From positions 126,832 to 190,831 of the forward strand of contig JAJNQB010000006.1 in assembly GCA_021155045.1 (NCBI GenBank): a stretch of DNA of 64,000 nt. The letters are read 5' to 3'. Of the stretch, positions 6,292 through 26,179 are shown one piece after another. A program made the translations under genes and the position numbers. Origin of the DNA: Arcticibacter sp. Lineage in GTDB: Bacteria; Bacteroidota; Bacteroidia; 2-12-FULL-35-15. The stretch's first letter is position 1, and each line of letters starts with the position of its first letter. The notes below the pieces were generated by a model that saw only the letters and a program-made list of their open reading frames with translations, made no database searches and was not told where the DNA came from.

Positions 6292-7200
6292 TTGTTTGCA
6301 ATGGAAAATTATCCTTCAAAAGTTTTAATGATTCGCCCTGTGCTTTTTGGTTATAATGAACAAACAGCAGCTAGCAATTCTTTTCAAAATTCAAAATTAA
6401 ATGAAAACGAAACGTATATACAAGGTCAAGCTTTGATTGAGTTTAATACTTTTTCTGAAAAACTTAGATTTGAAGGAATTGATGTTATAGAATTTGAAGA
6501 TACTGAAAAGCCGCATACTCCAGATTCAATTTTTCCGAATAATTGGATTTCTTTTCACGAAGATAATTTAATTGTATTGTATCCTATGCTAGCAGAAAAC
6601 AGAAGGCTTGAAAGAAGAAACGAAACGATAGATTTTTTTAAAAATGAAAAAACGCAAGTCATCGATTTTTCATCATTCGAAAAAGAAAATAAATTTTTAG
6701 AAGGCACAGGAAGTATCGTTTTTGATTATACCAATAAAGTTGCTTACGCAAATGTTTCTCCAAGAACAGATAAAAAATTGTTGCAGCAATTATGTGAAAA
6801 ATTGAATTACCAATGTGTAGTTTTTGCCGCTGTTGATAATGAAGGAAAGGATATTTACCATACAAATGTATTGATGTGTGTAGGGGCAACCTTTGCCGTT
6901 ATTTGTACCGAATGCATTAAAGATTCAAAAAATGTAATTCAATCATTGAAAAAAAGTAATAAAGAATTAATCGAAATTACTTGCGCTCAAATGAATTCTT
7001 TTGCTGGAAACATGTACCAATTGTTTAACGATAAAAATGAAAGTATCATTGTAATGAGTGAGCAAGCTTTTAAATCATTAAATGAAATACAGATAAATGA
7101 AATCCAAAAACATGGGAAAATATTACACTCCCCGCTTTATACTATCGAAAAGTATGGTGGGGGCAGTGCCCGTTGTATGATTGCAGATATCCGAAATTAA
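6292..7200 (+). CDS. amidinotransferase-superfamily protein (arginine deiminase-related / citrulline-utilisation hydrolase-like)
   Basis: C-terminal 'GGGSARCMIADI' has the catalytic-Cys motif typical of the ADI/DDAH/amidinotransferase fold. Length is 302 aa. Confidence 0.6.
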   Translation: MFAMENYPSKVLMIRPVLFGYNEQTAASNSFQNSKLNENETYIQGQALIEFNTFSEKLRFEGIDVIEFEDTEKPHTPDSIFPNNWISFHEDNLIVLYPMLAENRRLERRNETIDFFKNEKTQVIDFSSFEKENKFLEGTGSIVFDYTNKVAYANVSPRTDKKLLQQLCEKLNYQCVVFAAVDNEGKDIYHTNVLMCVGATFAVICTECIKDSKNVIQSLKKSNKELIEITCAQMNSFAGNMYQLFNDKNESIIVMSEQAFKSLNEIQINEIQKHGKILHSPLYTIEKYGGGSARCMIADIRN

Positions 7201-9770: not shown

Positions 9771-11063
9771 TTATGCAAACAAAGGAAAGTCCTTCATCAT
9801 TTTGTTTACCTCTTTACGAACTTCAAGAATAACTTTTTCATTGTCATTATTCATCAATACTTTATCAATCAGGTTTACAATTTTTGGAATGTGTTTTTCT
9901 TTCAATCCTCGGCTTGTAATTGCTGCTGTTCCAACACGAATGCCAGACGTTGTAAATGGTGATTTATCATCAAAAGGCACCATATTTTTATTTACTGTTA
10001 TATCGGCTTTTACAAGTGTGTTTTCTGCTAATTTACCAGTAAGTGTAGCTTGTCCGTTTGGTAGTTTTTTTGATCGCAAATCAATTAACATACAATGATT
10101 GTCAGTACCTCCACTTATAACTTTATAACCTTTATCTACAAAACATTGTGCCATTAGTTTTGCATTTTTCATTACTTGAACACAATATTTCAAGTAACTA
10201 TCTTCCAGCGCTTCACCATAAGCCACAGCTTTAGCAGCAATAACATGTTCCAATGGTCCTCCTTGTGTTCCAGGGAAAACAGCAGCATCGAGCAATTGCG
10301 ACATCATTTTTATTTCTCCTTTTGGCGTTTTTTCACCAAATGGATTAGGAAAATCTTTGCCCATCATTATCATTCCACCTCTTGGTCCGCGTAATGTTTT
10401 ATGAGTTGTTGTGGTTACAATATGACAATAGGGAAGAGGATCGTTTAATAAACCTCTTGCAATTAATCCTGCAGGATGTGCTATGTCTGCCATTAATAGG
10501 GCTCCAACTTTATCAGCAATTTTTCTAAATGTATTATAATCCCAATCACGTGAATAAGCAGATGCGCCACAAATAATTAATTTTGGTTTTTCGCGCAAAG
10601 CAATTTCCTCAACTTTTTTCATATTCACTCTTCCTGTTTTTTCGTCCACACCATAAAAACTAGGAACGTATAATTTTCCTGAATAATTTACAGGAGATCC
10701 GTGAGTTAAATGCCCACCGTGAGAAAGATCAAAGCCTAATATTTTGTCGCCAGGTTTTAATACAGCTAACATCACTGCTGCATTTGCTTGTGCTCCAGAA
10801 TGAGGTTGAACATTAACCCATTCAGCATTAAATAATTCTTTTGCTCTATCAATAGCAAGTTGTTCTACTTTATCTACTACTTCGCAACCACCATAATAAC
10901 GTTTATGAGGCAAACCCTCAGCATATTTGTTTGTTAGTACGCTACCCATCGCTTTCATTACTTGTTCGCTTACAAAATTTTCGGAAGCGATTAATTCTAT
11001 TCCAACAGTTTGGCGTTTTTTTTCTTCTGCTATTAAATTAAAAATTACGGTGTCTTTTTTCAT
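9771..11063 (-). CDS. glyA: serine hydroxymethyltransferase
   Basis: '[10 protein letters not shown]' and the PLP-lysine region '[15 protein letters not shown]'. Length is 430 aa. Confidence 0.95.
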
Positions 11064-11112: not shown

Positions 11113-11598
11113 TTAAGCTTTATTGTTTAGATTTTCTTTTTCGGCAAACATAAAAATGGGAATCAGAATCATCATCATAAAAGGCGATTGTTCTAACCCC
11201 ATTAAAAACCTTGAGAGTTCGTACATGCGTTCTGACGTGTTTTCAAAAAAATAGCCTATTCCCATAAATATTGCAGAGATAACCATTATAGTTGCGTATA
11301 GAAAAATAGAAATAGTTCTATATTTTTTATTGTTAAATAAAATTTTCAAAACCAATAAAAGTATAATTAAAAATAAACCAGAAAACACAATTGTTAATAC
11401 CCATTTTAAATTCGTTACAGTATCATAATCGTAATTTTTCAAGAAAGATAAACTTGGATGAATGGGATAATCCATATCATAATCCCAAGCTTGTAGCAAG
11501 GCGTTGATGCTTCTGAAAACATAATCCCTGTAAAAGCTTAAAAATAATACTAAAGCGAGAATTAAAAATAGAGTCCCGTTTTTTTTTGATCGATTCAT
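11113..11598 (-). CDS. small polytopic membrane protein, function unknown
   Basis: 4 predicted TM segments. The internal Met ([16 protein letters not shown]) at 11598 is the likely start. Divergent from the giant T9SS gene. Confidence 0.45.
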
Positions 11599-11738
11599 AG
11601 ATAAAACAAAATTAATATAAATGTTAGTTTGTTTTAATTTTAATTCACACATCGATTAATAATTGTGTTTTGTCGAAATGTTTTGATTTTTAATTATTTA
11701 ACATTAAATTCGCTAACATTATTTACCCTTGATAAAAC

Positions 11739-14700
11739 ATGAATAAACAATTGTCACCCCTGTTGTTATTCTTGTTGTTTGCCTTTGCTGGATTTTTTGC
11801 TAATGCTCAAAGCATTGCAAATTATGCTTCTGTGCGTACAACAGGTATAACTTATGCTTCAATATCAACTTCTGGTAATGCAATAGATAGTTGGCGAAAC
11901 AATGGAGCTTTTTCTCAAGACGATAATCGTAGCAATGCTACCGATATTGGATTTGATTTTTGGTATAATGGAACTCGTTATACACAATTTAGTGTTTCCA
12001 CAAATGGATATGTCGATTTTTCTTCATCTACAGCTAATGGAGGGGCAACAAATGGCCCTTATGGTTATGATAATACACAATTTACCGGAAATGGTGCTGG
12101 TACCTGGTTAGCTTTGGCTCCTTTTTATGATGACATGACAGCACAAGGAGGAACTGCTGCTCTTGGTAATAGTATAAAATATTTAGTCTCAGGAACTGCG
12201 CCAAATCGTGTACTTACCATTGAATGGATAAACATGGCTGTTTATTTAAATACAACTCCTAGTTTAAATTTTCAAGTAAAATTATATGAAACCACTGGAG
12301 TAATTGATTTTGTGTATGGTACTATGACGCAGGGAACAGCGAATTTTACATATACCTGCGGGATAAATGCAGCTACTTTAGCCAATACGCCTACTGTTGC
12401 TCAGCTTAAATGTCAGCAAGCTGCTAATTCTAATACATTCAGTAATTTTGAACAGAATTCTCTAACGGCAATGCCTACGAGTAATTCTAGAATAACTTTT
12501 ACTCCGCCCGTTACTACTCCTGCTTCTCCATCTGGGACATTAACATTTACTGGAGTTTCTCAAACGGGTATGACTGTTAATTGGGTTAACTGGAGTACAA
12601 ATGAAGTTGCTTATGTTTTATACAACTCTACAGATAATATTAATTTCAGCTTTGCTGCGCAAACCGCTGCAAATGTGACTTCTTATGCTTCAACAGGTTT
12701 ATTGCCTGGAACAACTTATTACTGGAGATTATATGCTGTTACTGATGGGTATCTTAGCACTTCAATAAATGGAAATCAAATAACCAATGCTGCTGGAAAT
12801 GTAATTTCAATTGCAACCGGTAATTGGAATCAAACTACTACATGGAATTGTGGATGTATTCCTTCTGCAGGTGATAATGTAACCATTGCAAACACGCATA
12901 CGGTGAGTATCAATGTAAATGCAAATTGCAATAATTTAACTGTTGGACAAGGAACGTCCGGAATATTGAGATTTACAGGAGGCACCAATTTGACAATGAA
13001 TGTAAATAATAGTATAGTTGTGAACAATGGAGCCACATTTAATGTTCAAAATAATGCAGTACATCAGTTGTATTTGGGTGGGAGTTTAACAAATAATGGC
13101 GTTTTGGATTTTGGACAAAACGTTAATAGAGCTTGTAATTTAAATTTAATAAAAAACGGAAACTCTTTTCTGGCAGGTACTGGCAGCATTAATAGGTATA
13201 ACGATATTATATTGAGCATGGGAAATTCCATTAATAATACATTGGAAGTTTCATCTTCAGTTTTTACTATAAAATCTGACTTTTTATTTTTAAATACTGG
13301 TACTTTTAAACTTTCAACTCCCAATACAATATCCTTAATTCCATTTTCTGGAGTTTCAACAATAAACAATAATTCTGGAATTATTGTTAATAGTGCTACT
13401 GCAACAGTTACATTTGGTAATACAATAAATTTATATGGGAACTTAATTGTAAATGCCGGCACCGTTAATATTGGAAATGCGAATAATGAAAATGTGGCTT
13501 CAAATGGTGGTACATTTCAAATAAATGGAGGAACAGTAAATATTGCAGGGCAATACTATTCTGCAAATATTAACACACTTGCTAAATTTACGATGGCAGC
13601 AGGAACACTTACTTTACCCACCTCTGGTTGTACTTCTACAACCATTGCTCCTTTTCATATTGATGGAGCTGGCTCAACTTTTAACATGAGTGGAGGTACA
13701 ATTGTAATTCAACGAGAAGGAGGAGCAGGACCACAGAACTTAGGTTATACAGTTCTAAATATTGCAAACAGCGCTGTAACCGGAGGTACGCTTCAAATAG
13801 GAAATGCAACTACTCCCGCTGCTCATATAATGAATATTAATAGTTCTGCAAGGGTTGGAAATTTATTAGTGTCAAGTGCCAATGCAACAGGTATGCTTAA
13901 TACTAACTCCTTAACAGTTACAAATAATATTACAATTGCTTCTGGTATTTTAAATTCGAGCAATCTAAATTTTACGCTTGGTGGCATTTGGACTAACAAT
14001 TCAACATTCACAGCAGGTACAGGGACGGTTATTTTTAACGGTACTGTAGCACAAACGTTAACAGGAAGTGTAGTTACAACCTTTAATAATTTAACAATGA
14101 ATAACACCAGTGGAAGTGGTGTTACATTGGGAATAAATACAAATGTTGGAGGTATTTTAAATTTTATTTCAGGAGTAATAACAACAAATACATTTAGAGT
14201 GATTATAAATCCAACGGGTTCTGTAACAGGTGCGGGTACAGGAAGGTTTGTAAATGGCTTTTTACAAAAAAATGTTGCAACAGGAACAAACGTTACAAGA
14301 AATTACGAAGTTGGGTTTGGGTTTACAGATTATTTACCTGTTAGTTTAACATTCGCTAGTGTTACAACTGCTGGCAATGTAACAGCAAAAGTGTTTAATG
14401 GTGACCATCCTAATATTGCAACGTCATGCATTGATGATTTAAAGAGTGTAAATCGTTATTGGCAAATAACAAATACTGGAACTGCGTTTACAAATTATTC
14501 TGCAACTTGTAATTTTATTGGTGTAGGTTCAGATGCGGATGCTGGTTCAGTTCCTGCAAATTATTTTATGGCACTTTATAATGGTGCTGCTTGGACAACA
14601 TTAACACAAGGAACAACAGCTTCAACTTCCAATCAAGCTACTGTAATTACAGCAATTGGGGCACTACAAGTAGGAGAGAGAAGAGGTCCTGTAATTACAA

Positions 14701-17700
14701 CGCAGCCAATAAACGTAACTGCTTGCAATGGAAATCCTGCTACTTTTTCAGTTGTAGCTAGTGGTTTTGGACTAACATATCAATGGCAACAGAATACAGG
14801 TAGTGGTTTTACAAATTTAGCCAATGGTGGAATTTATTCGGGCGTTACTACTTCAACATTAAATATATCAGCAGTAACTACAGGTATGAATGGATATTTA
14901 TACCGTTGTATTGTAACTTCTACAACTTGTGGAGGAAGCACAACTTCATCTAATGCAACATTAACTGTAAATGCAGCCGCAGGAGCAAGCATTACAATTT
15001 CTGCGAGCCCATCGAATAACATTTGTGCAGGAACCTCGGTTACATTTACAGCAACTATTACCAATGGTGGTGCTACTCCTGCTTATCAATGGCAACTAAA
15101 TGGAACAAATGTAGGAACGAATTCACCTACTTATATTAATTCAACTTTAAATAATGGAGATGTTGTGATGTGTATTTTAACTTCATCTGCTAGTTGTGTT
15201 CCCGGTCCTGTAAATTCGAATAATATTACAATGACTGTGAATCCTATTGTTCCTGTAAGTGTTTCAATTGCTGCAGCTCCTTCTGGTACTATTTGTTTTG
15301 GAACAAATGTTTCATTTACTGCAACTCCTGTAAATGGAGGTGTAAGTCCTACCTATCAATGGAAATTAAATGGATTAAATGTTGGAACAAATTCACCTAG
15401 CTACTCAAATTCAACATTATTGAATGGTGATATAATATCCTGTGAACTCACGTCTAGTGAAACTTGTATAACAGGAAGCCCTGCTACAAGTAATGCTATT
15501 ACTCAATCGGTAACACTTCTTGGTACATGGTTAGGAACAGCTTCTTCTGATTGGAACAATGCTTCAAATTGGTGTGGAGGAATTCCAACAAACTTAATTA
15601 ATGTTACTATTCCTTCTGGAACTCCATTTTCACCTCAATTAACAGCTGCTGGAAATTGTAGAAATATTAATATTGCTGCTGGAGTAATTTTAGATTTGAA
15701 TAATAATATCTTAAATGTATTTGGTGCTTTTTCAGGAACGGGAGAATTAAGAGGCTCATTATCTTCGGCAATAGCAATTCAGAGTGGAGCAGGAAGTGCA
15801 GGAACATTTTATATGGATCAAACAACTGCAGGTGTAACAAATAATTTAGACGTTATTACTGTTAATAGAACTGGTTCAACATTAACAATTGCAAATCCTT
15901 TAAATGTAACAAGTACAATAAATATTCAAGCAGGAACTTTTGCCACTGGAAACAATTTAACACTTGTATCTAATTCAACAAAAACAGCTCGTGTAGCTCA
16001 ATTAAATGCTGGGGCAGACATAACTGGTAATGTTACCATGCAACGATACATACCAAGCGGAACAGATGGTTGGATATTTTTATGTGCCCCAGTTTCTGGA
16101 ATAACTTTACAACAATGGGATGATGATGTAATAACTGGAGGTTTCCCCGGTTCGCAGTATCCACCTCCAACAGTTACTAATTCTTCGATTTATTCCTATA
16201 ACGAAGCATTGCCTGGTATTTATGATGATGGCTATGTTACACCTTCCAATATTACAGACCCAATAACTCCTCGAAAAGGATATTGGATGTATATCATGGG
16301 AACACCTTTAATTTTCGATGTTACAGGACCTTTATTAAAAGGAACACAAAATTTTGCTGTTACTTATACAGATGATCCTGCACAACCTGCTTATGAAGAT
16401 GGTTGGAATTTAATTGCAAACCCTTATCCTTCCACAATTGATTGGGATGGGGCTGGTTGGACAAAAACAAATGTTGCGGATGCAGTATATATGTATAACC
16501 CTACTTTAGATCAATATACCAGCTATGTGGGTGGTATAGGAACAAATGGAGGCTCCAATTTGATAGCATCTTCTCAAGCGTTTTTAGTGCAAACAACAGG
16601 CGCAAGTCCTGTATTGCAATTAACAGAAGCTGCAAAAAATGCAACCGATGGAATTTTTATTCGTTCATCTTCATCAAGTACGGATGATATTTTGAAATTA
16701 AATTTATCAGGAAACAGCTTTACCGATGAAACAATTATTCGATTTAATTCAAACGCCACAAATTCTGTAGATATAGATTACGATGCTTTAAAATTTTATA
16801 GTTATGGTACGGCTGTCCCAAGTATTGGCTCCATGCTTATTGATACTACAAATTATTCGATTAATTCTATTCCTTTATTAACAGCCGATTTAGTTATTCC
16901 AATAAAAGTGAAAGTTGGACTTTCTGGAACGTATACAATCAATTTGGATAGCATTTCAAGAATACCCGAAGGCTCTTGTTTAATTCTTATTGATTTAAAA
17001 ACAGGAATTCAAACAGATTTAAGAACAACTCCAAGCTATTCGTTTTATATTGTTGATACCACTACTTATCCTCGTTTTAGATTAAATATTGGCAAACCAA
17101 TACAAACATCTTCAATTGCTTCGTCTTGTAGTGCAACACCAGACGGTTCTGCTACAGCAACAGGAAATGGAGTAGGGCCATTCACATACACTTGGCAAAA
17201 TTCTTTAGGAACTATTTTACAAACTTCATCCAATATTTTTGGCTCAAATACCTTGAATAATATTCCGTCAGGTGATTATACTGTTACTATTTCTGGAAAT
17301 TCAGGAGTTTGTAATACTGTTTCAACTATAGTTTTTGTTGATGGCTTAGATGTAATTAATGTGTCTAGTACTGTTTTCAATGCAAGTTGCTCTGGCATAG
17401 CAGATGGCGGTATCGTTATTGATACAACCACAGGAGGTGTTTCACCATATACTTATAGTTGGTCGAATGGAAGTACAACAACAAATAATATGGGAATTAC
17501 TTCAGGTAATTATCAATTAACAATAACAGATAGTATTGGTTGTGCTCAACAAATTAATTTTAATGTTCCTCAAAATTCTGCTATTTCTGCTGGATTTACT
17601 TCCAGCACAGATACTGTTTACTTGTTGAGCAATGCACCTGTTGATTTTACAAATACATCAAATGGAGCAATAACTTATACTTGGGATTTTGGTGATGGAT

Positions 17701-18110
17701 CTGCAAATGACAATAGTCAAAATCCTTCCTACATCTATAAAATAGAAGGAACTTATACTGTTACTTTGATTGTGTCTGATGGAAATTGCACGGATACAAT
17801 TACTCAAGTTATTTATGTAATTAATAGTATAGATCCAACTGGAATAAATGAAATAGATTTAGAAAGCCTAGTTTCTGTTTATTCAAACAACTTCAATAAT
17901 TCAATTGATATTTTATTTAATTTAAACACACAACAAAAAGTTAAGATTGAAATATTTAATTCAATCGGACAAAAAGTTGTTGCAGATAATGAATTACAAG
18001 CACAGAAGAATAAACATAGTATTGACTTTGCTGATAAAGCAAAAGGTGTTTATCATATTAGGCTTTTAATAGGCAAGGAATTGATAACAAAGAAAATTGT
18101 AACCAATTAA
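11739..18110 (+). CDS. giant (2123 aa) T9SS-secreted cell-surface adhesin-like protein: beta-helix-like N-region, 3 tandem Ig-like repeats, SprB repeats, PKD domain, T9SS type-A CTD
   Basis: Signal peptide. Three ~95-aa repeats (…YQWQxNGxNVGTNSPxYxNSTLxNGDxxxCxLTSSxxC…) lie at about aa 985-1270. SprB-type repeats (C..DG...GG.sPYTYSW) lie at about aa 1790-1900. PKD-like 'YTWDFGDGS' is present. The C-terminus 'KGVYHIRLLIGKELITKKIVTN' is a T9SS CTD. Confidence 0.85.
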   Translation: MNKQLSPLLLFLLFAFAGFFANAQSIANYASVRTTGITYASISTSGNAIDSWRNNGAFSQDDNRSNATDIGFDFWYNGTRYTQFSVSTNGYVDFSSSTANGGATNGPYGYDNTQFTGNGAGTWLALAPFYDDMTAQGGTAALGNSIKYLVSGTAPNRVLTIEWINMAVYLNTTPSLNFQVKLYETTGVIDFVYGTMTQGTANFTYTCGINAATLANTPTVAQLKCQQAANSNTFSNFEQNSLTAMPTSNSRITFTPPVTTPASPSGTLTFTGVSQTGMTVNWVNWSTNEVAYVLYNSTDNINFSFAAQTAANVTSYASTGLLPGTTYYWRLYAVTDGYLSTSINGNQITNAAGNVISIATGNWNQTTTWNCGCIPSAGDNVTIANTHTVSINVNANCNNLTVGQGTSGILRFTGGTNLTMNVNNSIVVNNGATFNVQNNAVHQLYLGGSLTNNGVLDFGQNVNRACNLNLIKNGNSFLAGTGSINRYNDIILSMGNSINNTLEVSSSVFTIKSDFLFLNTGTFKLSTPNTISLIPFSGVSTINNNSGIIVNSATATVTFGNTINLYGNLIVNAGTVNIGNANNENVASNGGTFQINGGTVNIAGQYYSANINTLAKFTMAAGTLTLPTSGCTSTTIAPFHIDGAGSTFNMSGGTIVIQREGGAGPQNLGYTVLNIANSAVTGGTLQIGNATTPAAHIMNINSSARVGNLLVSSANATGMLNTNSLTVTNNITIASGILNSSNLNFTLGGIWTNNSTFTAGTGTVIFNGTVAQTLTGSVVTTFNNLTMNNTSGSGVTLGINTNVGGILNFISGVITTNTFRVIINPTGSVTGAGTGRFVNGFLQKNVATGTNVTRNYEVGFGFTDYLPVSLTFASVTTAGNVTAKVFNGDHPNIATSCIDDLKSVNRYWQITNTGTAFTNYSATCNFIGVGSDADAGSVPANYFMALYNGAAWTTLTQGTTASTSNQATVITAIGALQVGERRGPVITTQPINVTACNGNPATFSVVASGFGLTYQWQQNTGSGFTNLANGGIYSGVTTSTLNISAVTTGMNGYLYRCIVTSTTCGGSTTSSNATLTVNAAAGASITISASPSNNICAGTSVTFTATITNGGATPAYQWQLNGTNVGTNSPTYINSTLNNGDVVMCILTSSASCVPGPVNSNNITMTVNPIVPVSVSIAAAPSGTICFGTNVSFTATPVNGGVSPTYQWKLNGLNVGTNSPSYSNSTLLNGDIISCELTSSETCITGSPATSNAITQSVTLLGTWLGTASSDWNNASNWCGGIPTNLINVTIPSGTPFSPQLTAAGNCRNINIAAGVILDLNNNILNVFGAFSGTGELRGSLSSAIAIQSGAGSAGTFYMDQTTAGVTNNLDVITVNRTGSTLTIANPLNVTSTINIQAGTFATGNNLTLVSNSTKTARVAQLNAGADITGNVTMQRYIPSGTDGWIFLCAPVSGITLQQWDDDVITGGFPGSQYPPPTVTNSSIYSYNEALPGIYDDGYVTPSNITDPITPRKGYWMYIMGTPLIFDVTGPLLKGTQNFAVTYTDDPAQPAYEDGWNLIANPYPSTIDWDGAGWTKTNVADAVYMYNPTLDQYTSYVGGIGTNGGSNLIASSQAFLVQTTGASPVLQLTEAAKNATDGIFIRSSSSSTDDILKLNLSGNSFTDETIIRFNSNATNSVDIDYDALKFYSYGTAVPSIGSMLIDTTNYSINSIPLLTADLVIPIKVKVGLSGTYTINLDSISRIPEGSCLILIDLKTGIQTDLRTTPSYSFYIVDTTTYPRFRLNIGKPIQTSSIASSCSATPDGSATATGNGVGPFTYTWQNSLGTILQTSSNIFGSNTLNNIPSGDYTVTISGNSGVCNTVSTIVFVDGLDVINVSSTVFNASCSGIADGGIVIDTTTGGVSPYTYSWSNGSTTTNNMGITSGNYQLTITDSIGCAQQINFNVPQNSAISAGFTSSTDTVYLLSNAPVDFTNTSNGAITYTWDFGDGSANDNSQNPSYIYKIEGTYTVTLIVSDGNCTDTITQVIYVINSIDPTGINEIDLESLVSVYSNNFNNSIDILFNLNTQQKVKIEIFNSIGQKVVADNELQAQKNKHSIDFADKAKGVYHIRLLIGKELITKKIVTN

Positions 18111-18210: not shown

Positions 18211-18240
18211 AGAGGAAGCTTAAATAACTTCCTCTTTTTG
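18211..18240 (+). terminator. rho-independent terminator (agaggaag/cttcctct 8-bp stem + T5) downstream of the giant adhesin gene
   Basis: Perfect 8-bp inverted repeat followed by 'tttttg'. It overlaps the stop codon of the convergent xrtF. Confidence 0.5.
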
Positions 18241-18756
18241 TTTTAAACTTACTTTGTTTGTCCAAAGCATCCACATAAAAAAGATAAAGGCATAAATTAC
18301 AATTGTAAACGTGTAGGTATGATTAAATTCTGTCCATGCTCTAGACTTTGTATCTAATATTGCAAGTGTTACAATTCTAATGATATTCAATACTTCAATA
18401 GAAATAATTCCGATACTAATAAAAACTAATTTTTTCCACCATTTGCCTTTTGGATAAGCAACGATGAACCAAGTGAAAAGTGCAAACAAGGTAATGCCAT
18501 TGCAATTATCTCCAATCCAAAGTCCTCCTGTTCCATCAACACCAATAACACGTTCAACTCCTGTGAATACTCGGTAATTCATTAATTCTAAAACAAATTT
18601 GCTTATATCAACTGTTAGATTAATAACAAATAAATCTATTGTTTCGTTCGGATGTAGCCATAGATTATACACTAGATACCAGAGTATATAAAGAGAAAAC
18701 AGGCGGATAATAAATTTTACAATTGGATTTTTTAGGTACTCAAGAATAAGATTCAT
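18220..18756 (-). CDS. xrtF: exosortase-family transpeptidase, short Bacteroidetes type (XrtF-like)
   Basis: 178 aa polytopic membrane protein. The catalytic-Cys motif 'DNCNGITLF' is of the C-[SN]-G exosortase type. The conserved Arg motif 'NIIRIVTLAILD' and a downstream His/Asn ('EFNHTY') are present. Size and motifs match the short exosortase F class. Confidence 0.7.
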   Translation of the reverse strand: MNLILEYLKNPIVKFIIRLFSLYILWYLVYNLWLHPNETIDLFVINLTVDISKFVLELMNYRVFTGVERVIGVDGTGGLWIGDNCNGITLFALFTWFIVAYPKGKWWKKLVFISIGIISIEVLNIIRIVTLAILDTKSRAWTEFNHTYTFTIVIYAFIFFMWMLWTNKVSLKQKEEVI

Positions 18757-18772: not shown

Positions 18773-18804
18773 GAAAAAATCCCGTTTTAAACGGGATTTT
18801 TTTT
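18773..18804 (-). terminator. weak hairpin + U-run (possible attenuator/terminator) between the 74-aa gene and xrtF
   Basis: 'aaaaaatcccgttttaaacgggatttttttt' is a 5-6 bp GC stem with A6/T8 flanks. The stop codon of the 74-aa ORF lies in the loop. Confidence 0.35.
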
Positions 18805-19011
18805 AGTTGAATCGTATATCTTTTTTGCTCCAAAAATAATTCCTACAGCAATGAGTAGCCAAACACTACTATCCAAAGGAACTGGACAAGGAGGAAATGG
18901 ACCTCCGCAGGGAGCAGGCGGTCCGCTACCCATACCTGCTTTAGCCGTATTTGCTAAAAAGGGAGAAAATAACAAGAACGATACTATAAATATTTTTACA
19001 ATTTTATTCAT
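18787..19011 (-). CDS. small secreted Gly/Pro/Cys-rich protein with C-terminal PEP-CTERM-like tripartite tail (candidate exosortase substrate)
   Basis: Signal peptide MNKIVKIFIVSFLLFSPFLANTAKA. Mature core GMGSGPPAPCGGPFPPCPVPLD. Then a hydrophobic helix SSVWLLIAVGIIFGA, then basic KKIY…KK. It is co-directional with xrtF and immediately upstream of it. Confidence 0.55.
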   Translation of the reverse strand: MNKIVKIFIVSFLLFSPFLANTAKAGMGSGPPAPCGGPFPPCPVPLDSSVWLLIAVGIIFGAKKIYDSTKKNPV

Positions 19012-19060
19012 ATAGCTTTTTAATTTAAGACAAAATTAAAATTTATTTGTTAATACACTA

Positions 19061-21469
19061 TTATTTAATAAATTTTTTAACAACAGCACCTTTTTGATTT
19101 TCTACTTTAATAATGTAAACACCATTAAAGTTTTCTGGTAAAGCAACAAATACACTTTGGTTGCTAGCCTGTACAGAAAGGTTTTCGATAATGTTTTGTC
19201 CTAAAATATTTGTAACACTTATAGTAGTATTGTATGTTTCATCAAAGTTGAAATAAACTGTATTTCCATTTGTGTTCTGTAAAATTTGAATATTGTTTTC
19301 AATAGTGTTAGCAATAGAAGCAGCACTAATCATTGATTTACAATTTCCATTTTTAGAGAAGTGTAATATAAAACGATTTTTGTTGTCGTTTGTGTTGTAA
19401 GAAAATGTATAAGAGTTTTGCTCGTTAAGATTAATAAAATTATTTAGTAATGCATCTTCCAAAACAACACATGAATAATCTCCTACAAATTCCAATCCTT
19501 TTGCATCAATTGTAAATGTTCCATTTAAAATTGAATTTACTTCCAGTGGAATAGAATATTCTTCATTGTAAGAATTAAAAGTGTTAATTACCGATTTTTT
19601 CCCATCAATTGAACAAGTAATGCTTGGTGCTTCTTTTACTGGACTTTTTCTGAACGGATGATCCTCGTTCATATCAAATCCATTTGAAGCAGTATTGTTA
19701 GCAGCAAATTTAATCGTATGACTGTATTTACTGTTGTTATTTGTTAAATCAAGCATAAAATAAGGCTGAATAACATTCATATTCCTTAATGAGCTATTAG
19801 AAGAAGCTGTTTTTGCAGATTCATTTATTATTAGTGTTGGAGCACCTGTTGAATAAACCCAAAAACCTTGCCCTGCACCAATTTCTGTTCCAGCACCAAA
19901 AGTTGAATAGTTACCAACTGTGTAATCAAAAACATCATACGTTCCGCTTAAATTTGAGGAAGCTGCTAGTACAGAATTCCAGGAAATACTAGATGCAAAT
20001 GGATTTCCAACCAAATTAGAGCCAGCATTTGAAAAAGAAACTAAACTACTTAAATTTTGGTCGCCTTGGTTTGGAGTTCCCAATGTTGTAAGGGTTGTAT
20101 TAGGTAAATCAGCATAATTATAATCACCAGAAAGATAAACTTCATAGCCTTTGCCTGGTGTTAAAGCTGTTGTGTTGGTTGTGATAGCTACAAAATCATC
20201 CAAAGGCTCACTATAAGAATATTGAGTTGGATAGCTTGCAGGGGGAGCATATACATAGTACCTTGCAGGTAATTCTGCATCCCAATCAGCAAAGGTAGAT
20301 GCTTGAACAGGCGAAGCCATATCAGCCCATGTTGCAACTCTTGAGTTAATGAATCTCTGTATTGTAAAACTTCCAGAAATAGCACCTGTTCCAGTAATAG
20401 GAGCAATTCTTGCTGTTTGTCCAGCAGTTGATGTCATTGTAAAGCTAAGTCCATTAGTGTTAAATGTCCCATTGCTAATTGTTAGTACTTCATTCAAAAT
20501 ATAGGTTCCGCTCGAAAGGGAAACTCCAGAAGTATTATTTACAGCTAATCCTGTAAAAGTTGTTGTTCCTCCTCCAGAAAGGGTTTGTGCTGCGGATCCA
20601 TTAAAAGTAACAGTTCTTCCAGCACTTGCAGTAAAGTTTCCGTTCTTAACCCAATTTCCGCCAACGGTTAAATCAAAATTATTTGAATTTAAAGTGTTAT
20701 TGGCATTTATAGTTAAATTGTTTGCAACTATGGTGTTTGAAGGTAGTGTTTTTGTATTTGAAATAGTACCTGATAGTATAAGATTATTATAACCAGATGT
20801 TGTTAAAGGGATATTTCCATTAGTATTATATTTTAAATCAACGGTATTTCCAGATGCTGATGCAGTAAATGTTCTGCCTAACATAAAATTGGTTGCTGTT
20901 AGTGTAAGAATAGCGTTTGTACCATTAATAAAAGTTGCTCCAACTGCAGTAGGAACATTAGAAATTGTTAAACTCCCCAAATTAGTGACAGTTGCATTTG
21001 AAATACTAAAACTAGTTCGTTTTGTTATTGTTGTTCCTGCAGAAATAGTTCTAGATGACCCACTTGCAAAAGTATATCTAACACCTGTTCCAGATGATGA
21101 AAATGTACCACTACCAGAAATCGTTAATCCTGGGGTGTTGGGAAAAATGATTGCCCCATTGTTACCTGCTTCAGTACCATTTACAGTATAATTGCCCCAA
21201 ATTTGAAGAACACCAGGACTATTGACTGTGATTGTGCCTAAAACTGTTAATGCTAAACAGTAGCTTGATGTATTATTTGTAATGTTGTGGCCAGCTAAAA
21301 TAGTCAAGTTATCATCATAATCAGGAATTCCATCAGCATCAAATCCAACAACAGTCCAAGAAGCTGGGGTATTCCAATTGCCAGCTACAACATTAGAAGT
21401 AAAAGTTGCGGAATTAGAAATCAAGAATGAAAAAGTGGCAAAACAAAAAAGTAGGATAATTTTTTTCAT
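19061..21469 (-). CDS. T9SS-secreted surface protein (802 aa), truncated paralog of the 2123-aa adhesin
   Basis: Signal peptide. The segment 'FDLTVGGNWVKNGNFTASAGRTVTFNGSAAQTLSGGGTTTFTGLAVNNTSG' aligns with 'FTLGGIWTNNSTFTAGTGTVIFNGTVAQTLTGSVVTTFNNLTMNNTSG' of the giant protein. A second shared module surrounds 'PGKGYEVYLSG' / 'PRKGYWMYIMG'. T9SS CTD 'NGVYIIKVENQKGAVVKKFIK'. Confidence 0.8.
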   Translation of the reverse strand: MKKIILLFCFATFSFLISNSATFTSNVVAGNWNTPASWTVVGFDADGIPDYDDNLTILAGHNITNNTSSYCLALTVLGTITVNSPGVLQIWGNYTVNGTEAGNNGAIIFPNTPGLTISGSGTFSSSGTGVRYTFASGSSRTISAGTTITKRTSFSISNATVTNLGSLTISNVPTAVGATFINGTNAILTLTATNFMLGRTFTASASGNTVDLKYNTNGNIPLTTSGYNNLILSGTISNTKTLPSNTIVANNLTINANNTLNSNNFDLTVGGNWVKNGNFTASAGRTVTFNGSAAQTLSGGGTTTFTGLAVNNTSGVSLSSGTYILNEVLTISNGTFNTNGLSFTMTSTAGQTARIAPITGTGAISGSFTIQRFINSRVATWADMASPVQASTFADWDAELPARYYVYAPPASYPTQYSYSEPLDDFVAITTNTTALTPGKGYEVYLSGDYNYADLPNTTLTTLGTPNQGDQNLSSLVSFSNAGSNLVGNPFASSISWNSVLAASSNLSGTYDVFDYTVGNYSTFGAGTEIGAGQGFWVYSTGAPTLIINESAKTASSNSSLRNMNVIQPYFMLDLTNNNSKYSHTIKFAANNTASNGFDMNEDHPFRKSPVKEAPSITCSIDGKKSVINTFNSYNEEYSIPLEVNSILNGTFTIDAKGLEFVGDYSCVVLEDALLNNFINLNEQNSYTFSYNTNDNKNRFILHFSKNGNCKSMISAASIANTIENNIQILQNTNGNTVYFNFDETYNTTISVTNILGQNIIENLSVQASNQSVFVALPENFNGVYIIKVENQKGAVVKKFIK

Positions 21470-21702: not shown

Positions 21703-24051
21703 ATGATAGAGAAAAGAAAAGATAATTTAATAGAAATTGAAGATTTAAGAAAATTTTTAAAAATTTTTTCTAGAAATTGGATTGTTATTTTATTATTTAT
21801 TTCAGTTTCTTTTCTCGGGTCTTATGTATATACACACAAGCTTCCCGATATTTATGGGGCAAAAGCTCAAGTTTTATTGAAAAATAACGAAACGTATGAT
21901 TATCAAAACCAAATTTATAAGGGAATTGGTTATTATGCCACTTATCAAGACAATGCAAATCAAATTAGAGTATTAACCTCGAATGACCTAATCGCTCAGG
22001 TTATTTCTAAATTAAATTTAGATGTTTCTTATTTTATTATCGGAAGATTAAAAAAAACAGAAGTCTTTCAATCTGTTCCTTTTGAGGTAAAAATAAAAAC
22101 AATAAATCCTGCACTTTATGAGACGCCCATAAAAATTACAATCATTGACGAAGAACATTTTTCTTTAAGTTATTTAAAGAATGGGAGTTCAATGACTAAG
22201 AAATTTATGTTTAACAAATCTATCGAGGATCAGGATTTTTATATGATTGTAGAAAAAAATTCAATCATAAACAAGAACTCTATAGCCTCTTTAAATGAAA
22301 CGGATTATGAAATAGTTGTTTCGTCAAATGCATCATTAGTTGCAAAGTTTAAGAATAATCTTAGGGTTAATGAGATTGAAAGCACCACTATTTTAGAGCT
22401 GTTTTTAGAAGACGAAATACCTCTGAGGGCAATCAGTTTTTTAGATACGCTATCAAAAGTTTACATAGATTATACTTCAAAGTCCCAAATTATTATAAAC
22501 AATAATACAATTGATAATATTGATAAACAATTAAAAGAAATAACAGATGTACTTAAATCGATTGAGGATGACATGGAACTTTACCGTTCCGAAAAAGGTA
22601 TTTTAGACATAAATAGACAGCAAGATAATTATTTTGAAAAGCTAATTGATTTTGACACCAAAAAACGAGAACTAGAACTTTGGTCACAATCTTTGGAATC
22701 TTTACAAAAGTATATTATTTCGGTAGGTGATATATCAGACGAAAAACTTTTGCCCCCATCTTATTATATTGAACAGGGGGACGATTATTTAAAAGCAGCT
22801 TTGGGTAAATTGTATACCCTTCAAATGGATAGAAACCAACGATTAAATGGTTCAACTTTAAAGAATAGAAATATAAATGAAATTGATCAAGAACTTGATT
22901 TATTAAAAAAGAATATTTTAACGTATATTGATAATTCAAAAAAAGGCTTGAAAGACAGAATAACAGATATATCTAAACAGATTCAAGAATATACATCCAT
23001 TATAAAAACTGTTCCCAAAACTCAAAGAGATTTATTAAATATTCAACGTAAATTAGATGTGAACCAAAAAATGTATTCCTATCTTTTGGAAAAAAGAGCG
23101 AGTACTTTAATAGCAAAGGCTGGTATTTTACCTGAAACAAATGTTATAGAAGCTGCTCACAGTGTTGGAATTGTTGCCCCGAATAAGCGAAAGATAACAT
23201 ATTATTTTTTAGTTATTTCTTTATTTATTTCTGCTATTATTATATTTATTCGTCAAGTTTTTTATTATAGAATAGAAAATATTAATGAACTTAAAAGGCT
23301 TACAAATATTCCTGTTTTAGGAGAAATAATTCTTAATGATGCAAATCAAGAAAATTATATAATAGTGGATAAAGAAGTAAAATCGGCTATAACTGAAAGT
23401 TTTAGAGCAATCCGAACAGGATTGGAATATTTTGCAAGCAGTAACTCTTCCAAAATTGTTTTGCTTACATCTTATAACCCAGGAGAAGGTAAAACTTTTT
23501 GTTCTGTCAATCTTGCAACAATTTTGGCAAAAGGCGGAAAAAAAGTATTGTTGCTAGAATTGGACTTACATAAACCTAAAGTTCAGAAAGCATTTGATAT
23601 AGATGTTTCTGAAGGGATAACAAATGTATTAATTGGTAAATCTTCTATTGAATCTGTTGTAAAACAAACACATGTTGAAAATTTATCAGTTATGTTGGCA
23701 GGGCCAATTCCACCGAATGCTTCAGAATTAATTTTGAGCAAACACCTTTCTGAAATTTTTAACTATGGAAGACAAAATTTTGATTACGTAATTATTGACA
23801 CTCCTCCAATTGGTTTAATAACAGATGCATTTGTTATGATTAAAGATGTGGACATATCTCTCTTTGTAATAAATTCAAAAGTTGCAAGAAAACAAATAAT
23901 AAATATTGTGGAAGAAATGGTTGAAACAAATAAATTTCAAAATTTTGCCCTCTTACTTAATGGTGTGAAAAGAAACCGATCAAAATACTATTATAATTAT
24001 GGTTATGGTTATGGTTATGGTTATGGAAATTCACCAAAGTCTAAAAAGTAA
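21703..24051 (+). CDS. wzc: polysaccharide co-polymerase / BY-family tyrosine autokinase (Wzc-like)
   Basis: N-terminal Wzz-like domain with TM segments. Walker A 'GEGKTFCSVNLATILAKGGKKVLLLELDLHKP' and Walker B-like 'VIIDTPP'. Tyrosine-rich tail 'YYYNYGYGYGYGYGNSPKSKK'. Confidence 0.85.
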   Translation: MIEKRKDNLIEIEDLRKFLKIFSRNWIVILLFISVSFLGSYVYTHKLPDIYGAKAQVLLKNNETYDYQNQIYKGIGYYATYQDNANQIRVLTSNDLIAQVISKLNLDVSYFIIGRLKKTEVFQSVPFEVKIKTINPALYETPIKITIIDEEHFSLSYLKNGSSMTKKFMFNKSIEDQDFYMIVEKNSIINKNSIASLNETDYEIVVSSNASLVAKFKNNLRVNEIESTTILELFLEDEIPLRAISFLDTLSKVYIDYTSKSQIIINNNTIDNIDKQLKEITDVLKSIEDDMELYRSEKGILDINRQQDNYFEKLIDFDTKKRELELWSQSLESLQKYIISVGDISDEKLLPPSYYIEQGDDYLKAALGKLYTLQMDRNQRLNGSTLKNRNINEIDQELDLLKKNILTYIDNSKKGLKDRITDISKQIQEYTSIIKTVPKTQRDLLNIQRKLDVNQKMYSYLLEKRASTLIAKAGILPETNVIEAAHSVGIVAPNKRKITYYFLVISLFISAIIIFIRQVFYYRIENINELKRLTNIPVLGEIILNDANQENYIIVDKEVKSAITESFRAIRTGLEYFASSNSSKIVLLTSYNPGEGKTFCSVNLATILAKGGKKVLLLELDLHKPKVQKAFDIDVSEGITNVLIGKSSIESVVKQTHVENLSVMLAGPIPPNASELILSKHLSEIFNYGRQNFDYVIIDTPPIGLITDAFVMIKDVDISLFVINSKVARKQIINIVEEMVETNKFQNFALLLNGVKRNRSKYYYNYGYGYGYGYGNSPKSKK
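24001..24026 (+). repeat. (GGTTAT)x4.3 in-frame hexanucleotide tandem repeat encoding the (GY)n tail of Wzc
   Basis: 'ggttatggttatggttatggttatgg' read directly from the sequence. Confidence 0.9.
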
Positions 24052-24057
24052 TCTATT

Positions 24058-24909
24058 ATGGATTTAAATGGCAATTGGGATGTTGTAATTCAACCAAGAA
24101 CTAAATCTTTTGATTTTGGATTAAAAAATGTATGGCGTTATAAAGATTTATTGTTTCTTTTTATTAGACGTGATTTTATTGCTTTATACAAACAAACAAT
24201 ATTGGGACCTATTTGGTTTTTTTTACAACCTGTTATATCTGCTTTAGTCTTTACTGTTATTTTTGGATATTTTGCTAAATTAGATACAGAAGACGTTCCT
24301 CCAATTTTATTTTATCTAGGAGGACTTACCCTTTGGAATTATTTTGCCGAGTGTTTAAGTAAAACTTCTGAAACTTTTATTCAAAATCAGAATATATTTG
24401 GGAAAGTTTATTTTCCAAGATTAATTGTACCCATTTCAATTATTTTGTCAACTATGTTAAAGCTAGCAATACAGTTTTTTGTATTTCTGCTTTTTTGGTG
24501 TTATTATTATTTTTCAGGTAATAAAAACATTAATCCACAGCTTACAATTTTACTTTTTCCTGTATTAGTATTAATAATGGCTGGCTTAAGTTTAGGTTTT
24601 GGAATTATATTTTCATCTTTAACAACTAAATACAGAGATATAAAGTTTTTATTACAATTTGCAATACAGCTAATGATGTATTTATCATCAGTAGTAATAC
24701 CACTTTCTCAAATTCCTGAAAAGTATAAATTCTTAATTAAATTAAATCCAGTTGTGGCGGTTATTGAAACTTTTAAGCATGGTTTTTTAGGATCAGGGAT
24801 ATTCGATTTTTATAATTTAGTGTATAGCTTTTTATTTATGATAATTACTATTTTTATAGGATTGTTTTTATTTAGTAAAGTTGAAAAATCGTTTATGGAT
24901 ACTGTTTAA
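24058..24909 (+). CDS. wzm: ABC-2 type polysaccharide export permease (Wzm/KpsM-like)
   Basis: 6-TM ABC-2 permease, 283 aa, immediately upstream of the ATPase. Confidence 0.8.
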   Translation: MDLNGNWDVVIQPRTKSFDFGLKNVWRYKDLLFLFIRRDFIALYKQTILGPIWFFLQPVISALVFTVIFGYFAKLDTEDVPPILFYLGGLTLWNYFAECLSKTSETFIQNQNIFGKVYFPRLIVPISIILSTMLKLAIQFFVFLLFWCYYYFSGNKNINPQLTILLFPVLVLIMAGLSLGFGIIFSSLTTKYRDIKFLLQFAIQLMMYLSSVVIPLSQIPEKYKFLIKLNPVVAVIETFKHGFLGSGIFDFYNLVYSFLFMIITIFIGLFLFSKVEKSFMDTV

Positions 24910-24922
24910 AAAAATGTAATAA

Positions 24923-26179
24923 TTGAGCACAGTAATTAAAGTAGAAAATATAGGAAAACAATACCGCTTGGGACAAGTGGGAACAGGTACACTTTCTCAT
25001 GATCTTAATCGTTTTTGGCACCGTGTGCGAGGCAAAGATGATCCTTATTTAAAAATAGGTGAAATGAACGATCGTTCTGTTAAAGGGGCAAGCGATTGGG
25101 TTTGGGCTTTAAAAAATATCAGCTTTGATGTGAAACAAGGAGAAGTACTTGGCATTATTGGTAAAAATGGAGCAGGTAAATCTACTTTATTAAAACTTTT
25201 GTCTCAAGTTACACTGCCTTCAGAAGGTAATATTAAAATTAAAGGCAGAATAGCATCCTTACTTGAAGTGGGTACAGGGTTTCATCCAGAATTAACAGGT
25301 CGCGAAAATATATTTCTGAATGGGGCCATATTGGGAATGACCAAAGTCGAAATAAAAAGTAAGTTGGATGAAATTGTTGACTTTAGCGGAGTTGAAAAAT
25401 ATCTGGATACTCCAGTAAAACGTTACTCTTCAGGAATGATGGTGCGTTTAGGTTTTGCAGTAGCAGCACATTTGGAACCTGAAATTTTAATTGTGGATGA
25501 AGTGTTGGCAGTTGGAGATGCGGAGTTTCAAAAAAAATGTGTTGGTAAAATGAAAGATGTGAGTAGCGCAGGAAGAACTGTTTTGTTTGTAAGTCATCAA
25601 ATGGGAATTATAAATCAATTATGTGATAGAGCTATATTGTTAAAGGCTGGAAATATATTTGCTGACGGGGCAACAAAAAAAATAGTTGATCAGTATTTGA
25701 ATCTGGATGGAAATGATGCACAGTTTATTTATACCTGTACTCCGGAAAATTTGAAAAAGGAGAATGTAATTACAGAAGTAAGACCTTTAAATTTAAAAGG
25801 AGAGGATACTTCCAATTTTTCTTTTGAGGAATCCATTTCAATGCAAATTGTTTTTAAGGCAAATAGTCAAATTTCTGGGCTTAAGCTTGGGGTGGCTTTA
25901 ACTGATAATGTTCAAAACAGGGTTTTTACAGTTGTAAAAGATGTTGCTGAATTTAAAAAAATAAATAATACATATAACCAAAAAGTTATCTTTCAACCAG
26001 GGATGATCGCCCCAAATAATTATTCATTTATCATTGCTCTATTCGTTCCTGGAAAGCAAAATTATGAAGTTGTAGAAAATGTTTGTCCAATAAAAATTCA
26101 TGATGATGGTTCAAAATTAGCATTGTTCGAAGGACAAAATTATGGAAGCTTAATTATGAAAGAAATTTGGGAGTTATAG
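24923..26179 (+). CDS. wzt: polysaccharide ABC exporter ATP-binding protein with C-terminal extension (Wzt-like)
   Basis: Walker A 'GKNGAGKSTLLKLL', signature 'YSSGMMVRLGFA', Walker B 'ILIVDE'. An additional ~170-aa C-terminal domain, as in Wzt proteins with a carbohydrate-binding module. Uses a TTG start at 24923; the upstream ATG at 24914 is followed immediately by a stop. Confidence 0.85.
   Translation: MSTVIKVENIGKQYRLGQVGTGTLSHDLNRFWHRVRGKDDPYLKIGEMNDRSVKGASDWVWALKNISFDVKQGEVLGIIGKNGAGKSTLLKLLSQVTLPSEGNIKIKGRIASLLEVGTGFHPELTGRENIFLNGAILGMTKVEIKSKLDEIVDFSGVEKYLDTPVKRYSSGMMVRLGFAVAAHLEPEILIVDEVLAVGDAEFQKKCVGKMKDVSSAGRTVLFVSHQMGIINQLCDRAILLKAGNIFADGATKKIVDQYLNLDGNDAQFIYTCTPENLKKENVITEVRPLNLKGEDTSNFSFEESISMQIVFKANSQISGLKLGVALTDNVQNRVFTVVKDVAEFKKINNTYNQKVIFQPGMIAPNNYSFIIALFVPGKQNYEVVENVCPIKIHDDGSKLALFEGQNYGSLIMKEIWEL

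Follow-up and report, generated by a model that had tools for sequence, protein, structure and literature searches.

In the PEP-CTERM/XrtA (EpsH) system, one enzyme of the exosortase family serves many varied cargo proteins, which carry a signal peptide and a C-terminal tail built of a P-E-P motif, a helix and a basic cluster, and which go with an exopolysaccharide locus containing a tyrosine autokinase. Archaeosortase A, an archaeal enzyme, acts on large S-layer and other glycoproteins with a PGF motif; it works by proteolysis, needs its conserved active-site residues, and brings about the replacement of the PGF-CTERM helix by a lipid anchor (PMC6098224). Dedicated systems, in which one enzyme has one target and adjacency reveals the pair, form an established category (bioRxiv 10.1101/2023.06.07.544157), as in the JDVT-CTERM-type systems, where a single target lies beside its processing enzyme and the two-gene neighbourhood is conserved. 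Within the Bacteroidota, the XrtF system (TIGR04128/TIGR04127; Fjoh_1448/1449 of Flavobacterium johnsoniae) combines a small exosortase of about 175 amino acids (aa) with a small membrane protein, and biofilm formation and surface colonisation depend on both (PMC10936215); the substrates of XrtF have been reported as unknown (bioRxiv 10.1101/2024.12.02.626408). Closest to the locus considered here is the PID-CTERM/XrtX system (NF046080, NF046081 and NF046082; PF28310), in which a mini-protein gene, xrtX, a partner gene and glyA stand in this order beside a Wzc-like gene in other Bacteroidota. The subject of this report is the gene for a 74-aa mini-protein (the mini-gene), together with its surroundings, in a 64,000-nucleotide stretch of DNA from Arcticibacter sp. 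(positions 126,832 to 190,831 of contig JAJNQB010000006.1, assembly GCA_021155045.1), referred to below as the window.

The mini-protein is an ordinary, slightly divergent member of the catalogued PID-CTERM family, and its tail belongs to a sorting-signal class that is already known. The enzyme encoded next to it is XrtX, not XrtF. All three components of the PID-CTERM/XrtX system occur in the window, the tail and the enzyme scoring above their curated cut-offs, and the window is the cassette frame of the system (Wzc-like gene, mini-gene, xrtX, partner gene, glyA) plus two large added genes whose products carry tails of the type IX secretion system (T9SS). We think it likely, with room for real doubt, that the mini-protein is a dedicated substrate of XrtX in a Bacteroidota cassette (mini-protein, XrtX and XrtX-associated membrane protein) that heads a Wzc/ABC-transporter polysaccharide locus. 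The window's clade departs from the described system in having P-L-D-S-S for P-I-D-G-G, an invariant core (GM)n-PP.PCGGPFPPCP and a hairpin over the stop codon of the mini-gene; in the window itself, the two T9SS genes are inserted before the mini-gene and between xrtX and the partner gene, and the partner falls just under its cut-off.

The mini-gene occupies positions 18787..19011 of the minus strand, runs from an ATG to a TAA, and encodes the sequence MNKIVKIFIVSFLLFSPFLANTAKAGMGSGPPAPCGGPFPPCPVPLDSSVWLLIAVGIIFGAKKIYDSTKKNPV. The first-pass annotation had described its product as a secreted-type mini-protein, and each feature that it named is present: the open reading frame (ORF), the signal-peptide-like segment, the Pro/Gly/Cys core, the P-L-D motif, the helix and the Lys cluster. 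Direct reading of the sequence predicts a Sec signal peptide at residues 1-25 (MNKIVK / IFIVSFLLFSPFLA / NTAKA; 18937..19011, minus strand), with K3 and K6 ahead of hydrophobic residues 7-20 and with A23-K24-A25 followed by G26. Cleavage of the signal peptidase I type is predicted before G26, and the A-x-A-type site is kept across homologs, where KAA, FAA or MAA precedes the Gly. The short mature core, residues 26-43 (GMGSGPPAPCGGPFPPCP; 18883..18936, minus strand), is composed of a Gly-Met repeat and a Pro-rich C-x6-C loop in which the two cysteines, C35 and C42, are embedded in Pro and Gly. The remainder, residues 44-74 (18790..18882, minus strand), is the PID-CTERM sorting tail. It begins with V-P-L-D-S-S (the motif being P45-L46-D47), continues through a 13-residue hydrophobic helix (V50-A62) into K63K64, and ends in K70-K71-N-P-V, so that the order of motif, hydrophobic helix and basic cluster is placed at the extreme C-terminus and finishes at residue 74. 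On the opposite strand, a 54-aa ORF (18851..19015, plus strand; MSSQTLLSKGTGQGGNGPPQGAGGPLP...) mirrors the Pro/Gly-rich frame of the mini-gene and is most likely a shadow of the conserved minus-strand frame. Two other identities for the mini-protein were considered and rejected: that of a lipoprotein, as the predicted cleavage site lacks a Cys, and that of the precursor of a ribosomally synthesised and post-translationally modified peptide, since no modifying-enzyme genes were seen beside the mini-gene, its immediate neighbours being xrtX and a T9SS-tailed gene.

Among 5.8 billion proteins searched, 22 homologs were found, with lengths of 61-86 aa. One public protein (P0001) is 99% identical and carries PF28310. 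The residues that are invariant in the alignment of these homologs are G28, the run P34-C35-G36-G37-P38-F39-P40-P41-C42-P43, P45 and D47. To survey genomic context, one genome per species was scanned with the exosortase sequence, which gave 34 close loci, all from metagenome-assembled genomes of uncultured Bacteroidia or Flavobacteriales. Absence of the ORF from close relatives, or loss of its synteny, had been named earlier as the finding that would speak against it; instead, each of the 34 loci has an ORF of 71-83 aa and like design 14-100 nt ahead of the exosortase gene and on its strand. In L018, P-L-N replaces P-L-D. The 14-residue core PCGGPFPPCP[VI]P[LI]D is exact in 22 loci, and each of its codons varies synonymously, with most of the Pro and Gly positions using all four codons. 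Such variation beneath fixed amino acids indicates purifying selection on the protein and rules out both a chance ORF and a purely RNA-level element. The stretch 18787..19011 is a real protein-coding gene. The relatives also place the window's clade as a divergent branch of the family, marked by P-L-D-S/G-S/G, by an invariant CGGPFPPC loop and by a (Gly-Met)n N-terminal repeat that is confined to this clade and varies in length among its members.

Against the curated PID-CTERM model NF046080, the mini-protein scores 29.6 bits (cut-off 26 bits; E 4.2e-7), with residues 44-67 aligned to positions 1-24 of the 25-position profile. No other NCBIfam model matches the 74-aa protein at E <= 1, PEP-CTERM and the other C-terminal sorting-signal models included. 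All 22 homologs match NF046080 at E <= 0.1, many carry precomputed matches to the Pfam family PF28310 ("PID_CTERM"), and several are named "PID-CTERM protein-sorting domain-containing protein" by NCBI. A scan of the mini-protein against Pfam-A gave only spurious, sub-threshold TatA/TrbC matches on the helix, from a copy of the database that apparently lacks PF28310. The first-pass annotation had proposed that the tail could define a novel class of sorting signal, specific to XrtF; given the existing models and names, the novelty does not hold, and current annotation pipelines would label the gene as a PID-CTERM protein-sorting domain-containing protein and its neighbour as exosortase X. No second PID-type tail was found when all ORFs of the window were scanned with a regular expression.

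The earlier suggestion that homologs would share a motif, constantly spaced from the helix and backed by a basic cluster beyond that helix, was borne out by a logo of 198 unique mini-proteins anchored on the Pro of the motif. The motif itself reads [V 47% / I 41%]-P 100%-[I 52% / L 40% / V 8%]-D 99%-G 70%-G 83%-[I/V/L], and is followed by x-[L/F]-L 98%-x-x-A 83%-G 88%-x-x-Y 60%-G 92%-x-K 64%-K 85%-[I/L]-Y 65%, with further Lys at +25 and +26. Motif, 13-residue helix and basic cluster are thus in fixed register. In the same set, Pro makes up 33% and Gly 21% of the 18 residues that precede the motif. Two Cys occur in 67% of the family sequences, mostly as C-x6-C or C-x4-C, and 26% have none. Metal binding by the Met/Cys-rich core was set aside, the Cys pair being missing from those 26% and the GM repeat being found only in the window's clade.

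Members of this family offer very little to sort. Searching 1.84 billion cluster representatives with a full-length profile gave 564 clusters at E <= 1e-3. Among the 150 best, 147 are 54-117 aa long, and the other three match only through internal Gly/Pro-rich stretches. A shorter profile of the linker plus tail (46 columns) found 954 proteins at E <= 0.1, the best 120 of which are all 50-76 aa. The median family member has 76 aa, of which 46 precede the motif, leaving about 20 residues once the signal peptide is removed. The PID-CTERM family thus consists essentially of cargo-less mini-proteins. In this respect the XrtX arrangement, with one enzyme per cargo-less peptide, differs from PEP-CTERM/XrtA, where one enzyme has many varied cargo proteins, even as both share the signal peptide, the layout of the tail, an exosortase-family enzyme and a polysaccharide locus; the motifs also differ, being P-E-P there and P-[IL]-D here. 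The JDVT-CTERM-type systems resemble the window in their two-gene conservation but have another enzyme family and another motif, and the target in the window has practically no mature domain.

The gene immediately downstream of the mini-gene, starting 30 nt beyond it (18220..18756, minus strand), encodes a 178-aa exosortase. It scores 174.8 bits against the exosortase X model NF046081 (cut-off 170) and 52.2 bits against TIGR04178, the exosortase/archaeosortase signature (cut-off 23), and falls below the cut-offs of the sister models XrtF (66.4 bits against 90) and XrtY (70.9 bits against 160). XrtX is also the top-scoring model in all 11 further loci with a scored enzyme, among them three distant loci (172.6, 164 and 166.5 bits). 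The predicted catalytic residues C85, R127 and H146 do not vary among 34 XrtX sequences; conserved active-site residues are likewise a feature of archaeosortase A, which belongs to the same superfamily. TIGR04127, the exosortase F system-associated protein, matched neither the partner ORFs (E <= 1e-3) nor the window's own partner protein (1e-5), both of which matched NF046082 instead. The XrtF system does resemble this one in combining a small Bacteroidota exosortase with a small membrane protein, but XrtF has no known target, whereas XrtX stands next to a PID-CTERM peptide.

There is some indication that the mini-gene is transcribed as a unit of its own. Its stop codon lies within a terminator-like hairpin (18774..18802, minus strand), identified by folding, with 13 bp and arms made of an A-run and a U-run (dG -14.4 kcal/mol, z = -4.3; none of 200 shuffled sequences folds as well). 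The 5' arm encodes K-K-N-P-V and the stop, and the 3' arm with its U-run occupies the space between the mini-gene and xrtX. A crude automatic rule detects a hairpin with a T-run over the stop codon in 31 of 35 loci, and one is visible in L023 and L024 as well; L008, L023, L030 and L034 maintain the structure with different stem sequences. The only Rfam matches over the hairpin were to leader and small RNA (sRNA) families, all under the gathering score. The near-invariant K-K-N-P-A/V C-terminus of the window's clade is encoded by the 5' arm (18790..18804, minus strand), an overlap through which the peptide tail and the RNA structure constrain each other. More distant members of the family have other tails and no hairpin.

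At the other end of the gene, TAATTTTG (19031..19038, minus strand) starts 27 nt upstream of the ATG and matches the Bacteroidetes -7 promoter consensus, TAnnTTTG. A TAnnTTTG box occurs no more than 110 nt upstream of the start in 25 of 35 loci, and in 24 of these it is 22-39 nt before the ATG. From its position and sequence, TAATTTTG would act as the promoter box of the mini-gene. The mini-gene probably gives rise to its own short, abundant transcript with limited read-through into xrtX, an arrangement that would fit an excess of substrate over enzyme.

The third component of the cassette is a homolog of the XrtX-associated membrane protein (11113..11652, minus strand), which matches NF046082 at 68.1 bits (E 6.6e-19; cut-off 75). 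In tblastn searches its product is 45-52% identical to ORFs of about 160 aa that directly follow xrtX in L016, L018 and L026, and NF046082 itself matches ORFs of this size right after xrtX in L018, L029, L030, L033 and L034. After the partner gene comes glyA (9771..11063, minus strand), which encodes serine hydroxymethyltransferase (SHMT).

Between xrtX and the partner gene of the window is a convergent gene for a 2123-aa T9SS-tailed protein (11739..18110, plus strand; Por_Secre_tail 32.4 bits), homologs of which lie convergently downstream of xrtX in L001, L003-L006, L010 and L027. In other lineages, the cassette that it splits is unbroken. The second large gene (19061..21469, minus strand) lies directly upstream of the mini-gene and encodes an 802-aa T9SS-tailed protein (TIGR04183 Por_Secre_tail 34.7 bits); most of the close loci have a homolog with 36-75% identity in the same place and orientation. 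Residues ~1360-1800 of the 2123-aa protein show 25-29% identity to the 802-aa protein and its homologs, which means that the two flanking giants share a domain. The 802-aa protein also shares 29% identity with a DUF8202 protein encoded upstream of the mini-gene of L035 (over 527 aa; E 2e-50). DUF8202 proteins are encoded in this position in marine Flavobacteriales loci (L035 1868..4972 and L041 2937..5963), and the proteins of this type in the window, L035 and L041 are ~800-1030 aa long, the T9SS tail being confirmed only for the window protein. Six of the eight distant loci introduced below lack the gene, and the pattern suggests that T9SS cargo is linked in function to the XrtX system, but only facultatively.

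Upstream of the 802-aa gene, a divergent polysaccharide locus starts (21703..26179, plus strand; NCBIfam matches) with a gene for a Wzc-like tyrosine autokinase, followed by genes for Wzm-like and Wzt-like ABC exporter subunits. The kinase (21703..24051, plus strand) matches TIGR01007 at 168.8 bits, above its cut-off. The genes behind it have their best matches among models of the Wzm, Wzt and acetyltransferase types, the hits to NF050109 and NF050108 both being below the curated cut-offs, and weak matches to XrtA-associated kinase models appear as well. A run of same-strand genes, of which the first four were annotated, continues from 21703 to ~60000 (plus strand) and diverges from the cassette; the whole looks like an ABC-transporter-dependent polysaccharide locus.

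The same frame recurs well outside the close relatives. Eight more loci from distant Bacteroidota, reached through individual mini-proteins, have the order divergent ~775-804-aa protein, mini-gene, XrtX, membrane partner of ~126-165 aa, SHMT, with the exception that in L035 and L041 a partner-sized ORF precedes XrtX. The exosortase gene is no more than 1.5 kb downstream of the mini-gene in all eight and immediately adjacent in six. The divergent ~775-804-aa protein adjoins the mini-gene or the DUF8202 gene in each of them (Wzz/AAA_31 Pfam matches are on record in five), and many have NusG-like, ABC2-membrane and Wzt genes on the kinase side. Seven of the eight (L036-L042) have glyA beside the cassette, after the partner gene or, in L041, after xrtX; there is none inside L035. 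L041 also contains a sulfotransferase-family gene (6338..6949) between the mini-gene and the partner and exosortase genes, a hint that some lineages may have modification chemistry. Taken over the 34 close and eight distant loci, the one-to-one adjacency of mini-gene and enzyme gene is the signature of a dedicated sorting system.

How such a system might work can be sketched by combining the features of the window with the precedent of archaeosortase A. Transcription would begin from the mini-gene's own -7 box and mostly terminate at the hairpin over the stop codon, so that peptide mRNA would exceed xrtX mRNA. The pre-protein would then be exported by Sec and cut by signal peptidase I after A25. 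The 49-residue remainder would be held in the inner membrane by V50-A62, with K63/K64 and K70/K71 on the cytoplasmic side in keeping with the positive-inside rule. By analogy with archaeosortase A, Cys85, Arg127 and His146 of XrtX would cleave at or next to P45-L46-D47 on the outer face of the membrane. The same analogy has a Pro/Gly-rich peptide of about 20 residues, possibly with a disulfide bond between C35 and C42, being passed to an acceptor; the obvious candidates are a lipid and whatever the adjoining polysaccharide locus makes. The constant place of the cassette beside a polysaccharide locus, and the defects of mutants in XrtF and its partner, point to a role at the cell surface or in the matrix.

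Several observations weigh against reading the mini-protein as a dedicated XrtX substrate. Our literature search found no paper that mentions PID-CTERM and none of relevance on XrtX; the system is known from database curation only, and the cleavage site, the acceptor and the product are all predictions. For a sorting system, it is strange that the substrate should carry almost no cargo. The tail in the window is divergent (PLDSS, not PIDGG) and clears the NF046080 cut-off by only 3.6 bits, while the partner is under its own cut-off (68.1 against 75 bits) and is encoded 6.6 kb from xrtX, beyond a gene of 6.4 kb. As for expression, a rule-based terminator scan did not flag the hairpin, since the extended A/U stem takes in the T-run. 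Moreover, in L036-L040 the gap between the mini-gene and the exosortase gene is 0-13 nt, which leaves no room for a terminator; where the genes of distant loci nearly abut or overlap in this way, the separate-transcript arrangement cannot be universal.

The scarcity of cargo invites a different interpretation, namely that the mini-protein is never cleaved and serves as a stable single-pass membrane subunit or regulator of the XrtX/partner complex, with P-x-D-G-G, the helix and the KK pair forming a docking surface. Its strict one-to-one association with the enzyme would suit such a subunit, as would the fact that the helix region is the best conserved part of the protein family-wide (L 98%, A 83%, G 88%, G 92%). 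We consider this unlikely. The layout of motif, helix and basic cluster is that of known sortase-type signals, and curators have classed the tail as a sorting domain; within the window's clade, the PCGGPFPPCP core is more conserved than the helix, as expected of a product; and XrtX keeps its Cys, Arg and His.

Another possibility gives the peptide a different fate from that of a sorted protein. It could be a building block that XrtX joins to the polysaccharide of the adjacent locus, uses as an anchor for the T9SS/DUF8202 protein, or ligates head-to-tail into polymers or rings. Nearly all matches of both wide searches are of mini-protein size, the position beside the Wzc/ABC locus is constant, and distant lineages, too, encode a DUF8202-type T9SS protein just upstream. 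The predicted mature N-terminus in the window's clade is also Gly or Ala, and the motif ends in Asp. On the other hand, this scheme is pure inference, six of the eight distant loci lack the DUF8202 gene, and many family members would begin with Gln or Pro after removal of the signal peptide, which argues against a universal N-terminal nucleophile. The chances of the scheme are accordingly slim in our judgement. The more general proposal that XrtX may not sort proteins at all, its sole substrate being a Pro/Gly-rich, often disulfide-looped peptide of ~20 residues that is joined covalently to the polysaccharide of the locus or to a lipid, or that anchors the DUF8202 protein, strikes us as no less doubtful.

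The original proposal of a previously unrecognised signal class specific to XrtF drew on real affinities, in that XrtX stands nearer to XrtF than any other curated family does (for XrtX enzymes, the XrtF model ranks second or third, at 66-93 bits) and that XrtF is reported to have no known substrates. The scores of the curated models refute it, and we regard it as very improbable: the signal is already modelled (NF046080, PF28310) and publicly named, the enzyme passes the exosortase X model (174.8 against 170 bits) and fails that of XrtF, and the partner matches the XrtX-associated family, with no exosortase F system-associated protein detected. Finally, a chance ORF in an intergenic terminator has next to nothing to recommend it, for although the ORF is short and of low complexity, ends within the hairpin, and is overlapped there by the sub-threshold Rfam leader and sRNA matches, the idea is refuted by the invariant amino acids and freely varying synonymous codons of 22 loci, and it must also contend with 564 clusters of similar mini-proteins, profile matches above curated cut-offs and the lack of any Rfam family at gathering score.

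With the mini-protein thus taken as the probable dedicated substrate of XrtX, the analysis adds details that may be useful and that leave the classification unchanged: substrates without cargo, a clade-specific stop-codon terminator and -7 box, and recurrent DUF8202/T9SS neighbours. To our knowledge, no exosortase substrate of the Bacteroidota has been characterised experimentally. The XrtX cassette is unusually tractable in this regard, since a polysaccharide locus here comes with just a tiny substrate, its enzyme and one partner. Should the building-block scheme prove true, it would represent a peptide-tagging chemistry that has not been described for any exosortase. More broadly, the cassette could serve as a minimal model of what exosortases do to their targets, and it may illuminate the biofilm phenotype of the sister enzyme XrtF.

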